DNA of 64,000 nucleotides, from assembly GCF_055900595.2 (NCBI RefSeq), contig NZ_CM148325.1; one strand, 5' to 3'. Made by a program: the position numbers and the translations under genes. This document shows, one piece after another, positions 421 to 34,097 of the stretch; the first letter of the stretch is position 1, and each line of letters opens with the position of its first letter. Below the pieces are notes generated by a model, which was given only the letters and a program-made list of their open reading frames with translations, ran no database searches and had not been told where the DNA came from.

Positions 421-447
421 GAGGCGCTAACATAGCGCCTCATTTTT
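421..447 (+). terminator. Rho-independent terminator downstream of the monooxygenase gene
   Basis: Perfect 9-bp stem gaggcgcta/tagcgcctc with 3-nt loop, followed by ATTTTT. Confidence 0.6.
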
Positions 448-1160
448 GTGCACAGAAAACCCCCAGCTAGGCTGGGGGTTCCGGAAAGCTTTCAGCTTTG
501 AGCCAGTTATTAAAACCCCTTTTGATTTGTTAAAACACCTTGCGGTCTGGCAACTGCAAGTGTCAAACAAGAAATCAAAAGGGGGTCCCAATGGGGGACG
601 AAAAGAGCTTAGCGCACACCCGCTGGAACTGTAAATATCACATAGTTTTTGCGCCGAAATACCGAAGACTGGCGTTTTACGGAGAGAAGCGTAGGGCGAT
701 AGGCAGTATTTTGAGAAAGCTGTGTGAGTGGAAAAGCGTACGGATTCTGGAAGCAGAGTGCTGCGCAGATCATATCCATATGCTTGTGGAAATCCCACCC
801 AAAATGAGCGTATCCGGCTTTATGGGATATCTGAAAGGGAAAAGCAGTCTGATGCTTTACGAGCAGTTTGGGGATTTGAAATTCAAATACAGAAACAGGG
901 AGTTCTGGTGCCGAGGGTACTATGTCGATACGGTGGGTAAGAACACGGCGAAGATACAGGACTACATAAAGCACCAGCTTGAAGAGGATAAAATGGGGGA
1001 GCAGTTATCGATTCCATATCCGGGCAGCCCGTTTACGGGCCGTAAGTAACGAAGTTGAATGCAAATGTCAGATCGTATGCGCCTGTTAGGGCACGGCTGG
1101 TAACAGAGCCTTACAGGCGCATTTGAAAAACCTCCGGCTATGCCGGAGGATATTTATTTT
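445..1160 (+). mobile_element. IS200 insertion sequence (IS200/IS605 family), ends approximate
   Basis: 152-aa TnpA ORF; perfect left-end hairpin cccccagc-tag-gctggggg at about 460-478; stem-loop around the start codon (RBS sequestration); right-end hairpins at about 1088-1149. Length about 710 bp matches IS200. Exact ends not determinable by eye. Confidence 0.65.
591..1049 (+). CDS. tnpA: IS200 transposase TnpA (Y1 HUH transposase)
   Basis: 152 aa, MGDEKSLAHTRWNCKYHIVF... with the HxH motif (HIHMLVEIPP) and catalytic Tyr region; matches the IS200 TnpA I remember. ORF-track 540..1049 trimmed to the ATG at 591. Confidence 0.9.
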   Translation: MGDEKSLAHTRWNCKYHIVFAPKYRRLAFYGEKRRAIGSILRKLCEWKSVRILEAECCADHIHMLVEIPPKMSVSGFMGYLKGKSSLMLYEQFGDLKFKYRNREFWCRGYYVDTVGKNTAKIQDYIKHQLEEDKMGEQLSIPYPGSPFTGRK

Positions 1161-2577: not shown

Positions 2578-2800
2578 TGGCGTTCCTTTATTTGTGAGTG
2601 TCGAATAAGTATAGGAAAAAACGAAGCCCTTTGCCGTTACTCATAAGTGATTAAGATAAATCGGAGAATATCATTCACTTACTGTATATTTTTCTGAATA
2701 TGTCGTTTTATTGCCACTGATGTATTGCCACGCGAAACTAAAAAATATATTGCATCACACGGTAATCTCCGCGCACCTTTTCTTACCTGACTATTCCTCC

Positions 2801-4237
2801 ATGAATCGTGATTCCTTTTACCCAGCCATCGCCTGTTTTCCTCTGTTACTGATGCTGGCCGGGTGTGCGCCTATGCATGAAACCCGCCAGGCGTTAAGCC
2901 AGCAAACACCCGCTGCGCAAGTTGACACCGCATTACCTACGGCGCTGAAAAATGGTTGGCCAGACAGCCAATGGTGGCTGGAGTATCACGATAATCAACT
3001 CACTTCATTAATTAACTATGCACTGCAGAACGCACCGGATATGCAGGTGGCTGAACAGCGCATTCAGCTGGCTGAAGCCCAGGCGAAGGCAGTTGCCACT
3101 CAGGATGGCCCTCAGATCGATTTTTCTGCGGATATGGAGCGGCAAAAAATGTCGGCAGAAGGGCTAATGGGGCCGTTTGCTCTGAACGATCCTGCCGCAG
3201 GTACGACCGGTCCGTGGTACACCAACGGTACTTTTGGCTTAACGGCGGGCTGGCATCTCGATATCTGGGGAAAGAATCGGGCGGAGGTAACTGCTCGCCT
3301 GGGTACGGTTAAAGCACGAGCGGCGGAACGCGAGCAAACCCGCCAATTGCTGGCTGGCAGCGTTGCCCGCCTTTACTGGGAGTGGCAAACCCAGGCAGCG
3401 TTAAACACTGTTTTGCAGCAAATCGAAAAAGAGCAGAACACCATTATCGCGACCGATCGCCAGCTATATCAGAACGGGATTACTTCTTCAGTTGAAGGTG
3501 TGGAAACCGATATTAATGCCAGCAAGACCCGGCAGCAGCTCAACGATGTCGTGGGAAAAATGAAAATTATTGAGGCACGGTTAAGCGCACTTACAAATCA
3601 CCAGATAAAGTCATTGAAGCTTAAACCGGTTGAGTTGCCGAAAGTGGCAAGTCAGCTTCCTGATGAACTGGGGTATTCATTGCTGGCACGGCGGGCAGAT
3701 TTGCAGGCAGCGCATTGGTACGTTGAGTCATCGTTAAGCACCATTGATGCGGCAAAAGCGGCATTTTACCCTGACATCAACCTGATGGCCTTCCTGCAAC
3801 AGGATGCGTTGCACTTAAGCGATTTGTTCCGTCATTCCGCGCAGCAAATGGGCGTTACGGCAGGCCTGACGCTACCCATTTTCGATAGTGGTCGTCTTAA
3901 CGCCAACCTCGATATTGCAAAAGCCGAAAGCAACTTGTCTATCGCCAGCTACAACAAAGCGGTGGTTGAAGCGGTGAATGACGTGGCGCGGGCAGCCAGT
4001 CAGGTTCAGACGCTGGTGGAGAAAAACCAGCATCAGGCGCAAATTGAGCGCGATGCCTTGCGTGTGGTAGGTCTTGCGCAGGCCCGCTTTAACGCGGGTA
4101 TCATTGCTGGTTCCCGCGTCAGCGAAGCCAGGATCCCGGCGCTGCGTGAGCGGGCCAATGGCCTGTTATTGCAAGGGCAGTGGCTGGATGCCTCCATTCA
4201 ACTCACTGGTGCGTTGGGCGGGGGGTACAAACGCTGA
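2801..4237 (+). CDS. mdtQ: Outer-membrane efflux lipoprotein (NodT/OMF family), intact
   Basis: 478 aa from MNRDSFYPAIACFPLLLMLAGCAP (lipobox LAGC); ORF-track start 2711 is an upstream TTG extension. K-12 mdtQ (yohG) is a pseudogene by my recollection; here the frame is open. Confidence 0.8.
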   Translation: MNRDSFYPAIACFPLLLMLAGCAPMHETRQALSQQTPAAQVDTALPTALKNGWPDSQWWLEYHDNQLTSLINYALQNAPDMQVAEQRIQLAEAQAKAVATQDGPQIDFSADMERQKMSAEGLMGPFALNDPAAGTTGPWYTNGTFGLTAGWHLDIWGKNRAEVTARLGTVKARAAEREQTRQLLAGSVARLYWEWQTQAALNTVLQQIEKEQNTIIATDRQLYQNGITSSVEGVETDINASKTRQQLNDVVGKMKIIEARLSALTNHQIKSLKLKPVELPKVASQLPDELGYSLLARRADLQAAHWYVESSLSTIDAAKAAFYPDINLMAFLQQDALHLSDLFRHSAQQMGVTAGLTLPIFDSGRLNANLDIAKAESNLSIASYNKAVVEAVNDVARAASQVQTLVEKNQHQAQIERDALRVVGLAQARFNAGIIAGSRVSEARIPALRERANGLLLQGQWLDASIQLTGALGGGYKR

Positions 4238-28618: not shown

Positions 28619-31099
28619 ATGTTGAGAATGACCCCACTTGCATCAGCAATCGTAGCGTTATTGCTCGGCATTGAAGCTTATGCAGCTGAAGAAACCTTTG
28701 ATACCCATTTTATGATAGGTGGAATGAAAGACCAGCAGGTTGCAAATATTCGTCTTGATGATAATCAACCCTTGCCGGGGCAGTATGACATCGATATTTA
28801 TGTCAATAAGCAATGGCGCGGGAAATATGAGATTATTGTTAAAGACAACCCGCAAGAAACATGTTTATCAAGGGAAATTATCAAGCGGTTAGGCATTAAT
28901 ACCGATAACTTTGCCAGCGGTAAGCAATGTTTAACATTTGAGCAACTTGTTCACGGTGGGAGCTATACCTGGGATATCGGAGTTTTTCGTCTCGATTTCA
29001 GTGTACCGCAGGCGTGGGTGGAAGAACTGGAAAGTGGCTATGTTCCACCGGAAAACTGGGAGCGGGGTATTAATGCGTTTTATACCTCTTATTATGTGAG
29101 TCAGTATTACAGCGACTATAAAGCGTCGGGTAATAGCAAGAGTACATATGTACGTTTTAACAGCGGGTTAAACTTACTGGGGTGGCAACTGCATTCTGAT
29201 GCCAGTTTAAGTAAAACAAATAGCAATCCAGGGGTGTGGAAAAGCAATACCCTGTATCTGGAACGTGGATTTGCCCAACTTCTCGGCACGCTTCGCGTGG
29301 GTGATATGTACACATCAAGCGATATTTTTGATTCTGTTCGCTTCAGCGGTGTGCGGTTGTTTCGTGATATGCAGATGTTGCCTAACTCGAAACAAAATTT
29401 TACTCCACGGGTGCAGGGGATTGCTCAGAGTAACGCGCTGGTAACTATTGAACAGAACGGTTTTGTGGTTTATCAGAAAGAGGTTCCTCCTGGCCCGTTT
29501 GCGATTACAGATTTGCAGTTGGCCGGTGGTGGAGCAGATCTTGATGTCAGCGTGAAAGAGGCGGACGGTTCGGTAACCACCTATCTGGTGCCTTATGCAG
29601 CAGTGCCGAATATGCTGCAACCCGGCGTGTCGAAATATGATTTTGCGGCAGGTCGTAGCCATATTGAAGGGGCGAGCAAACAAAGTGATTTTGTTCAGGC
29701 GGGTTATCAGTATGGTTTTAATAACTTATTGACGCTGTATGGCGGATCGATGGTCGCGAATAATTATTACGCGTTCACTTTGGGGACTGGCTGGAATACA
29801 CGCATTGGTGCCATTTCCGTCGATGCCACGAAGTCGCATAGTAAACAAGACAACGGCGATGTGTTTGACGGGCAAAGTTATCAAATTGCCTACAACAAAT
29901 TTGTGAGCCAAACGTCGACGCGTTTTGGTCTGGCGGCCTGGCGTTATTCGTCGCGTGATTACCGGACATTTAACGATCACGTTTGGGCAAACAATAAAGA
30001 TAATTATCGCCGTGATGAAAACGATATCTATGACATTGCCGATTATTACCAGAACGATTTTGGCCGTAAAAATAGCTTTTCTGCCAATATGAGCCAGTCA
30101 TTGCCAGAAGGCTGGGGTTCTGTGTCCTTAAGTACGTTATGGCGAGATTACTGGGGGCGTAGCGGCAGCAGTAAGGATTATCAGTTGAGTTATTCCAACA
30201 ACCTGCGACGGATAAGCTATACCCTCGCGGCAAGCCAGGCTTATGACGAGAATCATCATGAAGAGAAACGTTTTAATATTTTTATAGCGATTCCCTTTGA
30301 TTGGGGTGATGACGTTACGACGCCTCGTCGGCAAATATATATATCTAACTCAACGACGTTTGATGATCAGGGGTTTGCCTCAAATAATACGGGATTATCG
30401 GGAACCGTTGGAAGCCGGGATCAATTTAACTATGGGGTCAACTTAAGTCATCAGCATCAGGGAAATGAAACGACAGCTGGCGCGAATTTGACCTGGAACG
30501 CGCCGGTTGCGACAGTGAATGGCAGTTATAGTCAGTCGAGTGCTTATCGACAAGCTGGAGCCAGTATTTCAGGGGGCATTGTCGCCTGGTCGGGTGGCGT
30601 TAATCTGGCGAACCGTCTTTCCGAAACGTTTGCTGTGATGAATGCGCCAGGAATTAAAGATGCTTATGTCAATGGGCAAAAATATCGCACAACAAACCGT
30701 AATGGAGTGGTGGTATACGACGGAATGACACCTTATCGGGAAAATCACCTGATGCTGGATGTGTCGCAAAGCGATAGCGAAGCAGAATTACGTGGCAACC
30801 GGAACATTGCCGCCCCTTTTCGCGGCGCGGTTGTACTGGTTAATTTTGATACCGATCAGCGCAAGCCCTGGTTTATAAAAGCGTTAAGAACGGATGGGCA
30901 ACCATTAACGTTTGGTTATGAAGTCAATGATATCCATGGTCATAATATTGGCGTTGTCGGCCAGGGAAGCCAGTTATTTATTCGCACCAATGAAGTACCG
31001 CCATCGGTTAATGTAGCAATTGATAAGCAACAAGGGCTTTCATGCACAATCACCTTCGGTAAAGAGATTGATGAAAGTAGAAATTATATTTGCCAGTAA
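28619..31099 (+). CDS. yehB: Outer-membrane fimbrial usher YehB
   Basis: 826 aa from MLRMTPLASAIVALLLG...; usher family; start trimmed from 28604. Confidence 0.88.
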   Translation: MLRMTPLASAIVALLLGIEAYAAEETFDTHFMIGGMKDQQVANIRLDDNQPLPGQYDIDIYVNKQWRGKYEIIVKDNPQETCLSREIIKRLGINTDNFASGKQCLTFEQLVHGGSYTWDIGVFRLDFSVPQAWVEELESGYVPPENWERGINAFYTSYYVSQYYSDYKASGNSKSTYVRFNSGLNLLGWQLHSDASLSKTNSNPGVWKSNTLYLERGFAQLLGTLRVGDMYTSSDIFDSVRFSGVRLFRDMQMLPNSKQNFTPRVQGIAQSNALVTIEQNGFVVYQKEVPPGPFAITDLQLAGGGADLDVSVKEADGSVTTYLVPYAAVPNMLQPGVSKYDFAAGRSHIEGASKQSDFVQAGYQYGFNNLLTLYGGSMVANNYYAFTLGTGWNTRIGAISVDATKSHSKQDNGDVFDGQSYQIAYNKFVSQTSTRFGLAAWRYSSRDYRTFNDHVWANNKDNYRRDENDIYDIADYYQNDFGRKNSFSANMSQSLPEGWGSVSLSTLWRDYWGRSGSSKDYQLSYSNNLRRISYTLAASQAYDENHHEEKRFNIFIAIPFDWGDDVTTPRRQIYISNSTTFDDQGFASNNTGLSGTVGSRDQFNYGVNLSHQHQGNETTAGANLTWNAPVATVNGSYSQSSAYRQAGASISGGIVAWSGGVNLANRLSETFAVMNAPGIKDAYVNGQKYRTTNRNGVVVYDGMTPYRENHLMLDVSQSDSEAELRGNRNIAAPFRGAVVLVNFDTDQRKPWFIKALRTDGQPLTFGYEVNDIHGHNIGVVGQGSQLFIRTNEVPPSVNVAIDKQQGLSCTITFGKEIDESRNYICQ

Positions 31100-31114
31100 T
31101 AGTCAGGTGGTTCT

Positions 31115-32149
31115 ATGAAAATTCGCATAATGCTATTTATATTAACGATGATGGTTATGCCTGTGAGCTATGCAGCATGTTATAGTGAGTTATCTGTTCA
31201 GCACAATTTGATTGTTCAGGGGGATTTTGCACTTACTCAAACACAAATGGCAACATATGAGCATAATTTTAATGATTCGTCATGCGTGAGTACAAATACT
31301 ATCACCCCTATGAGCCCGTCGGATGTTATTGTTGGACTTTATAACGATACCATTAAATTAAATTTACATTTTGAATGGACCAATAAAAACAACATCACGT
31401 TGTCAAATAATCAGACCAGTTTCACCAATGGTTATTCGGTAACGGTGACACCTGCGGCCAGTAATGCAAAAGTGAATGTTTCTGCGGGGGGCGGCGGTTC
31501 AGTGATGATTAATGGTGTTGCGACATTATCCAGTGCTTCATCATCGACACGCGGGAGTGCTGCAGTACAATTTTTACTGTGTTTATTCGGTGGCAAGTCA
31601 TGGGATGCATGTGTAAATAGCTACAGAAATGCATTGGCACAAAATGCAGGTGTCTATTCCTTTAATCTGACATTGTCATACAACCCGATAACCACAACCT
31701 GCAAACCGGACGATTTATTAATTACTTTAGAGAGTATTCCCGTTTCACAATTACCTGCTACAGGTAACAAAGCAACAATAAATAGTAACAAAGGGGATAT
31801 TGTTCTGCGTTGTAAAAACTTATTAGGTCAACAAAATCAAACATCACGGAAAATGCAGGTGTATTTATCAAGTTCTGACTTGTTAACCAACAGCAACACA
31901 ATACTGAAAGGTGCGGAAGATAATGGTGTAGGATTTATTCTTGAAAGTAATGGTTCTCCAGTCACACTTTTAAATATCACTAACAGCAGTAAAGAATACA
32001 CAAATTTAAAAGAAATTGCGGCAAAGTCAATACTTACAGATACAACGGTTTCAATTCCGATAACTGCCAGTTACTACGTCTACGATACAAATAAAATTAA
32101 ATCTGGCGCACTGGAGGCAACCGCATTAATCAACGTGAAATACGACTAA
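31115..32149 (+). CDS. yehA: Fimbrial tip adhesin-like protein YehA
   Basis: 344 aa, signal peptide, two-domain adhesin-like fimbrial protein. Confidence 0.85.
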   Translation: MKIRIMLFILTMMVMPVSYAACYSELSVQHNLIVQGDFALTQTQMATYEHNFNDSSCVSTNTITPMSPSDVIVGLYNDTIKLNLHFEWTNKNNITLSNNQTSFTNGYSVTVTPAASNAKVNVSAGGGGSVMINGVATLSSASSSTRGSAAVQFLLCLFGGKSWDACVNSYRNALAQNAGVYSFNLTLSYNPITTTCKPDDLLITLESIPVSQLPATGNKATINSNKGDIVLRCKNLLGQQNQTSRKMQVYLSSSDLLTNSNTILKGAEDNGVGFILESNGSPVTLLNITNSSKEYTNLKEIAAKSILTDTTVSIPITASYYVYDTNKIKSGALEATALINVKYD

Positions 32150-32205
32150 TAACAAGCAAGACGAGCAAGTGGCTAATAATAAAAAATAACAAGGTGTCTG
32201 CATTT

Positions 32206-32232
32206 CCCCCTCATGATGAGGGGGCTTTTTTT
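32206..32232 (+). terminator. Rho-independent terminator of the yeh fimbrial operon
   Basis: Perfect stem ccccctca/tgaggggg with 3-nt loop followed by a run of 7 T; the T-run overlaps the rcnB stop codon on the other strand. Confidence 0.75.
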
Positions 32233-32569
32233 AGCGATGATAAAAAATCTCACCATCGTAGGCTTTAATGATTTTACCGTCGGTGTCGCTGATCAACACA
32301 TACGCGCCACCCATATAGGTCCAGTGCGTCCCGGCATCAGGCGCGGGCAGGTTACGTAACTGCCACTGCTTAATGTTGTACTCATCGGTGCGGTACATCT
32401 CTGGGACGGTATCGCCTGGTTTGAAATGCTTAAAGTCAGCAATGAAACTGCTTAACTCATACTTAGAAATTCCCGAGGTATTGGTCGAACCCGCGGTGGC
32501 TGGTGCGGCCCAGGCGGCACTGGTAACCAGCAAAAGCGCACCCAGCAACATCTTATTTTTAATGGTCAT
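32231..32569 (-). CDS. rcnB: Periplasmic nickel/cobalt homeostasis protein RcnB
   Basis: 112 aa from MTIKNKMLLGALLLVTSAAWA (signal peptide); ORF-track start 32749 is an N-terminal extension. Confidence 0.85.
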   Translation of the reverse strand: MTIKNKMLLGALLLVTSAAWAAPATAGSTNTSGISKYELSSFIADFKHFKPGDTVPEMYRTDEYNIKQWQLRNLPAPDAGTHWTYMGGAYVLISDTDGKIIKAYDGEIFYHR

Positions 32570-32773
32570 ATACTCTCCACTTTGGGGATCTGTAATATCA
32601 GTCGCATATCTTTCCTGCCATACAATATAACTGACAAGCGATATTTTGTTAGTGATCCCATGATTTCGTAAAAAGTGTAAATGAAAGGATGCCCTAAAAG
32701 CATCCTTAGCGAGCAGAGAGCCAGCGGAAATAGCTGATTTAAGAATCATCCTGGGCTGAAGATAACATGCAGC

Positions 32774-33595
32774 CTATCGCATAATGCCCATAAAGCCATG
32801 CACGCCCATATACACCCCAACTAAGCCAATCAACAGACTGGAAAAATAGGGGGCACGTTTAGCGAGAGTGTTAAATCCGCTCCAGCGTTTTGCGACCTGC
32901 TGAACGCTGATTGCTGCGCCAACGCCTACGGTGACTAGCGTTAACGCCAGGCCAATGCTGAAACTGACGACCAGTGTTGCGCCTAGTGTCAGGGCTTTCA
33001 ACTGAATACAAATCAACAGCACGGTAATTGCTGCCGGGCAGGGGATCAGTCCACCTGTTAACCCAAACAATAAAATTTGCCAGTTGGTCACTTCTCTGCC
33101 ATTGAAGCGTCGTTTGATGTCATTGGCATGGGCTCGTGCATGAGCATCCTGATACTCCCCATGTTCGTGATGGTGATGATGTCCATGGTCGTGGTGATCT
33201 TCGTGATCGTGATGATACTCATGATCATGCCCGTGCATATTCTCCAGCCAGTTACGTTCGCCGCGCCAGGTACGCCAGAACATCCAGAACGCGGTGCCAA
33301 TAATGATCACCGCGGAAATCAACTGGAGCCACGGTTCTGCAGATTGAGCAGTAAAACGTTTGCTGATCACCATCCCGCCAAAGGCAATCAACCAGACCAC
33401 CGCGGTATGCGAAATGGTTGCTGCCAGTCCGAGCATCACCGCCTGTTTAATGGTGCCTTTGATGGCGATGATAAACGCCGCCATCATCGTTTTTGAGTGC
33501 CCTGGTTCCAGGCCATGAAGCGCACCAAGTAAGATGGCGCTGGGAATGAAGAACCAGGCGTTTCCTTGCTGAAGAAGAGTGGTAAATTCAGTCAT
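32774..33595 (-). CDS. rcnA: Nickel/cobalt efflux protein RcnA
   Basis: 273 aa membrane protein with a long His-rich loop (HGHDHEYHHDHEDHHDHGHHHHHEHGEY). Confidence 0.92.
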   Translation of the reverse strand: MTEFTTLLQQGNAWFFIPSAILLGALHGLEPGHSKTMMAAFIIAIKGTIKQAVMLGLAATISHTAVVWLIAFGGMVISKRFTAQSAEPWLQLISAVIIIGTAFWMFWRTWRGERNWLENMHGHDHEYHHDHEDHHDHGHHHHHEHGEYQDAHARAHANDIKRRFNGREVTNWQILLFGLTGGLIPCPAAITVLLICIQLKALTLGATLVVSFSIGLALTLVTVGVGAAISVQQVAKRWSGFNTLAKRAPYFSSLLIGLVGVYMGVHGFMGIMR

Positions 33596-33632
33596 GATAA
33601 TAATTCTTAGTATTAATTCGACAATCTGATTC

Positions 33633-33667
33633 TACTCCCCCCCAGTACATGATACTACCCCCCAGTA
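33633..33667. promoter_or_regulatory. Two RcnR operator sites (TACT-G6-N-AGTA type) in the rcnR-rcnA divergent intergenic region
   Basis: tactcccccccagta and tactaccccccagta, 20 bp apart; matches the established RcnR recognition motif. Confidence 0.8.
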
Positions 33668-33715
33668 GATTAATAGTGCTATGATTTTTCATGTTCTTGT
33701 TAACCAGGTGTTGCC

Positions 33716-33988
33716 ATGTCTCATACAATCCGTGATAAACAGAAACTGAAAGCGCGTGCCAGTAAGATTCAGGGCCAGGTCGTGGCGCTCAAGAAAATGC
33801 TCGACGAGCCGCACGAATGCGCAGCTGTTCTACAACAGATTGCTGCTATCCGTGGCGCGGTAAACGGCCTGATGCGCGAAGTGATTAAGGGGCATCTGAC
33901 GGAACACATCGTTCACCAGGGGGATGAGCTAAAACGTGAAGAAGATCTGGATGTCGTTCTGAAGGTGCTGGATTCTTATATCAAATGA
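33716..33988 (+). CDS. rcnR: Ni/Co-responsive repressor RcnR (CsoR/RcnR family)
   Basis: 90 aa; conserved H-C-H-H metal-ligand pattern of the family. Confidence 0.92.
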
Positions 33989-34097
33989 AAGTGCCTAATA
34001 TGGCCGTAGTTGAGGCAATAAATAGAGGGACAAGTGACGTTAAGCTGAATTAGAGTAAATGGCGTGAGGACACACGCCATTCGAGGATATAGTTTGA

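Follow-up and report, generated by a model that had tools for sequence, protein, structure and literature searches.

An intact IS200 element behind a terminator-like hairpin before dusC in Escherichia coli, and the target sites of the IS200 group

IS200 and other elements that insert beside hairpins

[quoted passage not shown] Termination at the left-end hairpin has been documented in both directions (PMC4513863). Members of the wider IS200/IS605 family show a lagging-strand bias (PMC5371812), and IS608 is directed to the 3' side of a tetranucleotide by base pairing between that target and a guide sequence, which lies at the 5' foot of its left-end hairpin (PMC7290912). Two other kinds of element also settle beside hairpins. 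Group IIC introns insert behind intrinsic terminators or attC stem-loops, and ISPpu9 and ISPpu10, found in REP sequences, are small insertion sequences that choose intergenic hairpins as safe sites.

We analysed a 64,000-nt stretch of an E. coli genome (NCBI RefSeq assembly GCF_055900595.2, contig NZ_CM148325.1), hereafter the window; coordinates refer to its + strand unless stated otherwise. Between the mhb island and dusC lies IS200 (448-1158; 711 bp), an ordinary and intact tnpA-only member of the IS200 group within the IS200/IS605 family and the single IS200 copy in the 64-kb window. It has no terminal inverted repeats and made no target duplication. The bounds were set by comparison with the empty site and with copies that stand in unrelated sequence, placing the termini at GTGCACAG... 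on the left and ...GATATTTATT on the right, each end being ambiguous by 1-2 nt because both flanks are T-rich. An earlier note, made from the sequence alone, had put the element at 445-1160, which is correct to within 3 nt. The same note described a complete IS200-type element with a 152-aa TnpA, a left-end terminator hairpin and a start-codon stem-loop; this was confirmed, and each of the three parts was found (591-1049, 458-480 and 516-584, respectively).

The transposase gene, tnpA (591-1049), is intact and encodes a Y1 HUH transposase of 152 aa that matches NCBIfam NF033573 (transpos_IS200; 2e-42, 144 bits against a cutoff of 55), and Pfam PF01797 (Y1_Tnp) is listed for an identical protein. 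The HUH motif is H61-I62-H63, and Y125 is the candidate catalytic tyrosine by analogy with IS608 and not from an alignment. No other open reading frame of the element has a family match, and there is no tnpB. At the left end, a perfect hairpin (458-480; DNA fold -11.7 kcal/mol, z -3.9) corresponds to the IS200 terminator at nt 12-34 and opens a full-length match to Rfam RF01405 (STnc490, the IS200 5' region) at 458-581 (146.4 bits against a gathering score of 56, E 3e-31, model positions 1-124 of 124). A stem-loop in the 5'UTR (516-584; RNA fold -43.8 kcal/mol, z -4.6), which follows the Rfam structure line, pairs with the tnpA Shine-Dalgarno sequence GGGGG (580-584). The right end holds a long imperfect hairpin (1076-1122; the RNA fold of 1050-1173 has -47.4 kcal/mol, z -4.4) and a shorter one, CCTCCGGC-TAT-GCCGGAGG (1131-1149), which is terminator-like on both strands and is followed by 9 nt, ATATTTATT, up to the end of the element. 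The IS200 hairpins fold far better than shuffled controls, and those at 458-480 and 1131-1149 are alike in shape, with a GC-rich stem of 8-10 bp and a 3-nt loop. The reading frame and both ends are intact, and the empty site in the closest relative implies that this copy moved recently.

In all of this the window copy resembles IS200 of Salmonella and E. coli, IS200C and IS1541, with which it shares a length of about 710 bp and a single 152-aa Y1 transposase. [quoted passage not shown] The 711 bp compare with 707 bp quoted for Salmonella IS200, and the subtype is about 4% off IS200C; otherwise we found no substantive difference. The PGAP label for transposases of the window type is only 'IS200/IS605 family transposase'. 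With IS608 and ISDra2 the element shares an HUH/Y1 TnpA, a subterminal hairpin at either end, and an insertion point on the 3' side of a short target that is not duplicated; going by the GC skew, its top strand may also lie on the lagging-strand template, as theirs would. However, IS608 uses the bare tetranucleotide TTAC and carries tnpB, whereas the window IS200 has a T-rich target and no tnpB. Unlike that of IS608, the target of the IS200 group lies almost always behind a GC-rich hairpin at 6-9 nt, and it may be the hairpin itself that is recognised. The resemblance to group IIC introns is convergent: these are retroelements with a ribozyme and a reverse transcriptase, whereas IS200 transposes as DNA by means of a Y1 transposase. 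ISPpu9 and ISPpu10 belong to another family (ISPpu10 to IS110, with bridge-RNA recombination), and their targets are REP sequences rather than the T-runs of terminators.

The insertion site before dusC, its age and the mhb island

The element stands directly behind a GC-rich, terminator-like hairpin, GAGGCGCT-AAC-ATAGCGCCTC (421-441; DNA fold -10.5 kcal/mol, z -7.2). From the stem foot at 441 to the insertion after 447 is a distance of 6 nt, and the insertion splits a T-run, of which five T remain on the left (443-447) and three on the right, followed by GCGGGTGATGAT and the dusC start codon at 1174. Comparison of the filled site (T5, element, T3) with empty sites carrying T7 (L002, L005 and L008) reveals no duplication beyond a 1-nt T ambiguity. 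The flanking T add up to eight (5 + 3) in the window, against T7 in the closest empty site, which would mean ends misplaced by one base or a run that changed in length; T counts are off by one base in some genomes whichever definition of the left end is used. The target hairpin is kept in the empty sites of genomes both with and without the mhb island. Hairpin and T7 (421-447 in the window, 1478-1505 in L005, 10530-10557 in L008) lie 20 nt before the dusC ATG. In K-12-type genomes they precede dusC without any co-oriented gene upstream, and a second strong hairpin, AGAGGGATTGC-AGTT-GCAATCCCTCT, is present about 45 nt further upstream.

We consider it very probable that this is an ordinary, recent IS200 insertion into a preferred target of hairpin plus T-run, and that the nearby break from K-12 is not its doing. 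IS200 would have entered the chromosome of this E. coli lineage recently by single-strand 'peel and paste' transposition, and the place where it landed, in a T-run and 6 nt beyond the stem foot of a terminator-like, GC-rich hairpin, would be its preferred target. Such a target is strand-specific and would therefore fix at once the closeness to dusC (at most 15 nt), the shared orientation and the position of the top strand on the lagging-strand template that skew indicates. GC skew on the + strand is positive in seven of the eight bins, a measure that covers the 64 kb only and from which the direction of replication was inferred. It agrees with the top strand and the target hairpin both lying on the lagging-strand template, as the bias of the family would predict (PMC5371812).

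The window is E. coli sequence. Identities of only 95-97% for the dusC region in one sample of matches had raised the possibility of another species, a reading that was rejected because the low values were due to the sampling: positions 30000-34000 of the window are 99.9% identical to several complete genomes, and the flanks of the element are 99.8-99.9% identical to those of the closest relative, strain E200086, in which the site is uninterrupted and empty (...GAGGCGCTAACATAGCGCCTCATTTTTTTGCGGGTGATGATATG, T7). Since the relative's site is empty despite this identity, the insertion is recent. The earlier note had asked whether the same sequence precedes dusC in all E. coli; an IS200 of any kind occupies the site in 6 of 5,426 complete genomes, and the window's subtype in none of the 5,426, so the insertion is also private to its lineage. 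Among near-identical relatives that carry the island, of which there are eight, the one inspected directly is empty, and the other seven are inferred to be empty, as none of them belongs to the six genomes with a match across the insertion site.

A rival reading is an ancient, vertically inherited insertion that was precisely excised in most lineages, and two observations are in keeping with it: Y1 transposons do excise precisely, and the window IS200 and the IS200C copies at dusC are about 4% apart (96% identical), near the flank divergence of 4-5%. However, copies at unrelated loci reach 99.86% identity to that of the window, which differs at one position from a copy downstream of fdnI (710 of 711 identical) and at two from a copy downstream of the prophage gene lom (709 of 711), both in other E. 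coli. The site is empty in genomes with flanks of 99.9-100% identity (by direct inspection in one, by inference from coverage counts in seven). The junction offsets, moreover, vary at dusC (7/0, 6/1 and 5/3, given as T left and right of the element), as they do at the fdnI terminator (8/0 and 7/1), where the variation fits repeated hits. We regard an ancient origin as very unlikely.

IS200C occupies the same dusC T-run in all six E. coli genomes (of 5,426 complete ones) that have an element there. Its junctions are 7/0 in three genomes (a single one of them carrying the island), 6/1 in one and 5/3 in two, and the window IS200 also has 5/3. The differing subtypes and offsets imply at least three or four independent insertions, and the dusC-proximal T-run is thus a recurrent IS200 hot spot. 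Such a concentration, in one 3-nt interval directly upstream of one gene, might also reflect selection for altered dusC expression, the insertions being adaptive, rather than target preference. Yet only 7 of about 5,427 genomes carry one, many unrelated terminators receive such insertions in the same way, and target preference by itself accounts for the recurrence. To our knowledge, dusC is a non-essential tRNA-modification gene, and we know of no growth phenotype tied to it. Adaptive recurrence, too, we regard as very unlikely.

The earlier note had also placed the element exactly where gene content departs from K-12, which was not borne out: the break is the right edge of the mhb island, some 25-31 nt away, and K-12-type sequence, namely the hairpin and T-run, extends for that distance to the left of IS200 (about 417-447). 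The window opens with the 3' end of a gene for 3-hydroxybenzoate 6-monooxygenase (1-302; NCBIfam NF006021, 4.6e-52, profile positions 300-397), annotated in the same way in related genomes. This is the last gene of the mhb (3-hydroxybenzoate/gentisate) island, which lies between yohJ and dusC and comprises a LysR regulator, mhbT, gtdA, a fumarylacetoacetate hydrolase gene, maiA and the monooxygenase gene.

IS200 lies only about 30 nt from the end of K-12-type sequence and about 145 nt from the last island gene, which raises the question of whether it made or mediated the break, through gain or loss of the island beside dusC. Four findings speak against this. A search with the last island gene found the island in about 611 of 5,426 complete genomes of E. 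coli (about 11%), and only one of these has an IS200 at dusC; O157:H7 and E200086 have the island and an empty site; five island-free genomes have an IS200 in the same T-run; and the K-12-type hairpin and T-run continue on the left of the element. As the island is nearly always without IS200, and IS200 also occurs where the island is missing, the element is near the break but not its cause, a role we consider extremely improbable. The apparent adjacency arises because the target hairpin and T-run lie between the island and dusC; there is no causal link between IS200 and the island edge, and their proximity is coincidental.

Between the last island gene and the target hairpin is a segment of about 118 bp (about 303-420) with a GC-rich repeat (about 318-375), of which the part at 351-371, GGGGAGAGGGTTAGGGTGAGGGG, resembles a boxC element. 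The repeat is present in a single copy in the window, and the segment occurs also in O157:H7 and E200086. In strain DETEC-S792, the mhb island is present and 16 nt of K-12 type (TAATCCGCTGACCATA) take the place of the segment.

Target sites across the IS200 group

For a survey of target sites, one genome per species was scanned for the exact 23-nt left-end hairpin, which yielded at least 120 stretches from Yersinia pestis (IS1541), Vibrio, Mailhella, a Bacillota MAG, Oxalobacter, Brenneria, Dickeya, Edwardsiella, Pluralibacter and others. In the 70 nt that precede the stretches, almost all of them presented a similar picture, and 122 non-redundant, non-tandem left flanks, E. coli included, formed the analysis set, which is dominated by IS1541 of Y. 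pestis (about 50 of the 122 sites). Among the matches listed, 111 of the 122 left flanks (about 91%) had a stem of 5 bp or more with a G:C pair at its foot, and in 96 of 122 (79%) the insertion lay 6-9 nt past the foot of the stem; controls at the same loci gave 6.4% for random positions, 5.6% for T-rich positions and 4.6% for the ends of intergenic T-runs. A strict terminator rule picked out 83 of 124 sites among the matches listed, compared with 7 of 1,200 controls. Across the 122 flanks listed, T prevails from -7 to -1 and G or C from -16 to -8. The final two flank bases are TT at almost all 122 of these listed sites, a feature that is partly built in because the junction-placing script searched for TT.

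The same arrangement holds for the closest copies of the window element. Those at fdnI and lom likewise lie directly behind a GC-rich hairpin and a T-run, as do all ten further copies with exactly the window's TnpA, which represent nine distinct loci. Each of these ten stands at the end of a co-oriented upstream gene; judged from Pfam domains, the upstream genes appear to be purL, pgsA, htpX, fdnI, paaY, dsbA, hrpA and nuoN. In the fdnI-yddM intergenic region (L132 and L136), the window's subtype follows the fdnI terminator with 8 T before ATTGCG in one case and 7 T before TATTGCG in the other. The total number of T is equal and the offset shifted, as at dusC, which suggests repeated hits or local re-insertion.

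The hairpin requirement is read here from surviving copies rather than from de novo transposition, and selection could contribute to the pattern. The T-run-matched and intergenic controls argue against selection alone. As to how the target might be recognised, nearly all left-end variants among the matches listed have A-rich bases (...GAA) on the 5' side of the left-end hairpin. These bases, at the foot of the hairpin, may recognise the T-rich target in the manner of the IS608 guide tetranucleotide, and the target hairpin with its 6-9 nt would mimic the element's own right end (a hairpin and 9 nt). We tentatively propose that the IS200 group is dedicated to terminators, TnpA and the A-rich guide together recognising a GC-rich ssDNA hairpin and T-run that mimic the right end of the element and integrating 6-9 nt past the foot, so that single terminators, those before dusC and after fdnI among them, are hit repeatedly and independently; at present we hold this for possible but somewhat doubtful. 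On such terminator homing, each insertion would exchange the tail of the host terminator for the terminator-like right end of IS200. If recognition of the hairpin is direct, IS200 would offer a simple model of structure-guided safe-site choice by a Y1 transposase.

The practical consequences concern how IS200 copies are read in genomes. Where the position and orientation of a copy are predictable from terminator hairpins, its adjacency to gene starts or island edges should not be over-interpreted, and where the same terminators are hit repeatedly, a shared insertion site need not mean common descent, a point of relevance to IS200-based strain typing. We found no paper stating this target rule in the accessible literature, and older papers on IS200 and IS1541 may already describe it. 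The only comparable statement that we found is in a 2025-26 preprint, where it is read as damping of transposase expression.

Tandem IS1541 copies were observed in Y. pestis NCTC5923 (L074 about 290-360; L075 2661-3393; L077 12605-13337; L121). In these, the right end ...CCTCCGGCTATGCCGGAGGATATTTATT abuts the next left end GTGCCCAGAA... and the hairpins are 710 bp apart, which suggests that the right end of the element is itself used as a target. The 23-nt left-end hairpin, AACCCCCAGCTAGGCTGGGGGTT, is exact in genomes and MAGs of very distant groups among the matches listed (L009-L128), namely Enterobacterales, Vibrio, Oxalobacter, Mailhella/Desulfovibrio, Bacillota, Peptococcaceae, Elusimicrobia and Saccharibacteria bins, and the 10 nt to its left differ between lineages. 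This spread points to a strong constraint on the hairpin, to wide horizontal spread, or to mis-binned MAG contigs.

Predicted effect on dusC and the adjoining sequence

The element ends 15 nt before the dusC ATG (1174) and in the same orientation as the gene, in agreement with the 15-25 bp and co-orientation claimed beforehand. The right flank, TTTGCGGGTGATGAT (1159-1173), consists of the remaining T-run and the ribosome-binding region of dusC and is the same as the empty site from GCGGG on. Neither the ribosome-binding region nor the reading frame is touched by IS200: dusC (1174-2121), for tRNA dihydrouridine(16) synthase, is intact at 315 aa (NF007838, 692.8 bits), with 99.9% DNA identity to L008.

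Transcription that arrives at dusC from upstream would have to cross both the left-end terminator and the terminator-like right-end hairpin, and a polar reduction of dusC expression is therefore predicted; on sequence grounds it is plausible. Even without the insertion, a terminator-like hairpin stands 20 nt ahead of the dusC ATG. For K-12, a dusC promoter has been predicted by genomic SELEX about 200 bp upstream, beside yohJ (PMC3946193). In our search for a published dusC transcription start, this predicted promoter and a bare Reg-Seq table entry were all that we found. A promoter scan of positions 250-1300 returned no sigma-70-like promoter, outward or hybrid, facing dusC in or near IS200 that reached the threshold. 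A hand-picked candidate (TTGTCT or TTAATC, N16-17, and TAACAT in the hairpin loop) scored 8 of 12 only and was dropped.

In sum, an established element occupies a site of the type it usually takes, and the finding is of minor importance for this locus. Of more interest are two by-products, namely how very cleanly the insertions of the IS200 group follow terminator hairpins and how the hairpin next to dusC has been used several times independently.

Some features further downstream were also noted. In the gap between dusC and yohP lies a GC-rich, unannotated repeat of about 270 bp with internal inverted repeats (about 2172-2450), which occurs at a median of three and up to eight places per E. 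coli genome and gave no match in Rfam. O157:H7 has it at the same locus in reversed orientation, at 87.5% identity. On the - strand, an AgvB-like match in Rfam at 2411-2471 is weak (22.9 bits, E 0.26; gathering score 56) and probably due to chance. The outer-membrane efflux gene mdtQ (2711-4237) forms a long open frame and is apparently intact in the window; it is annotated as frameshifted in the laboratory-source E. coli strain 'tolC-' and has an internal stop in DETEC-S792.
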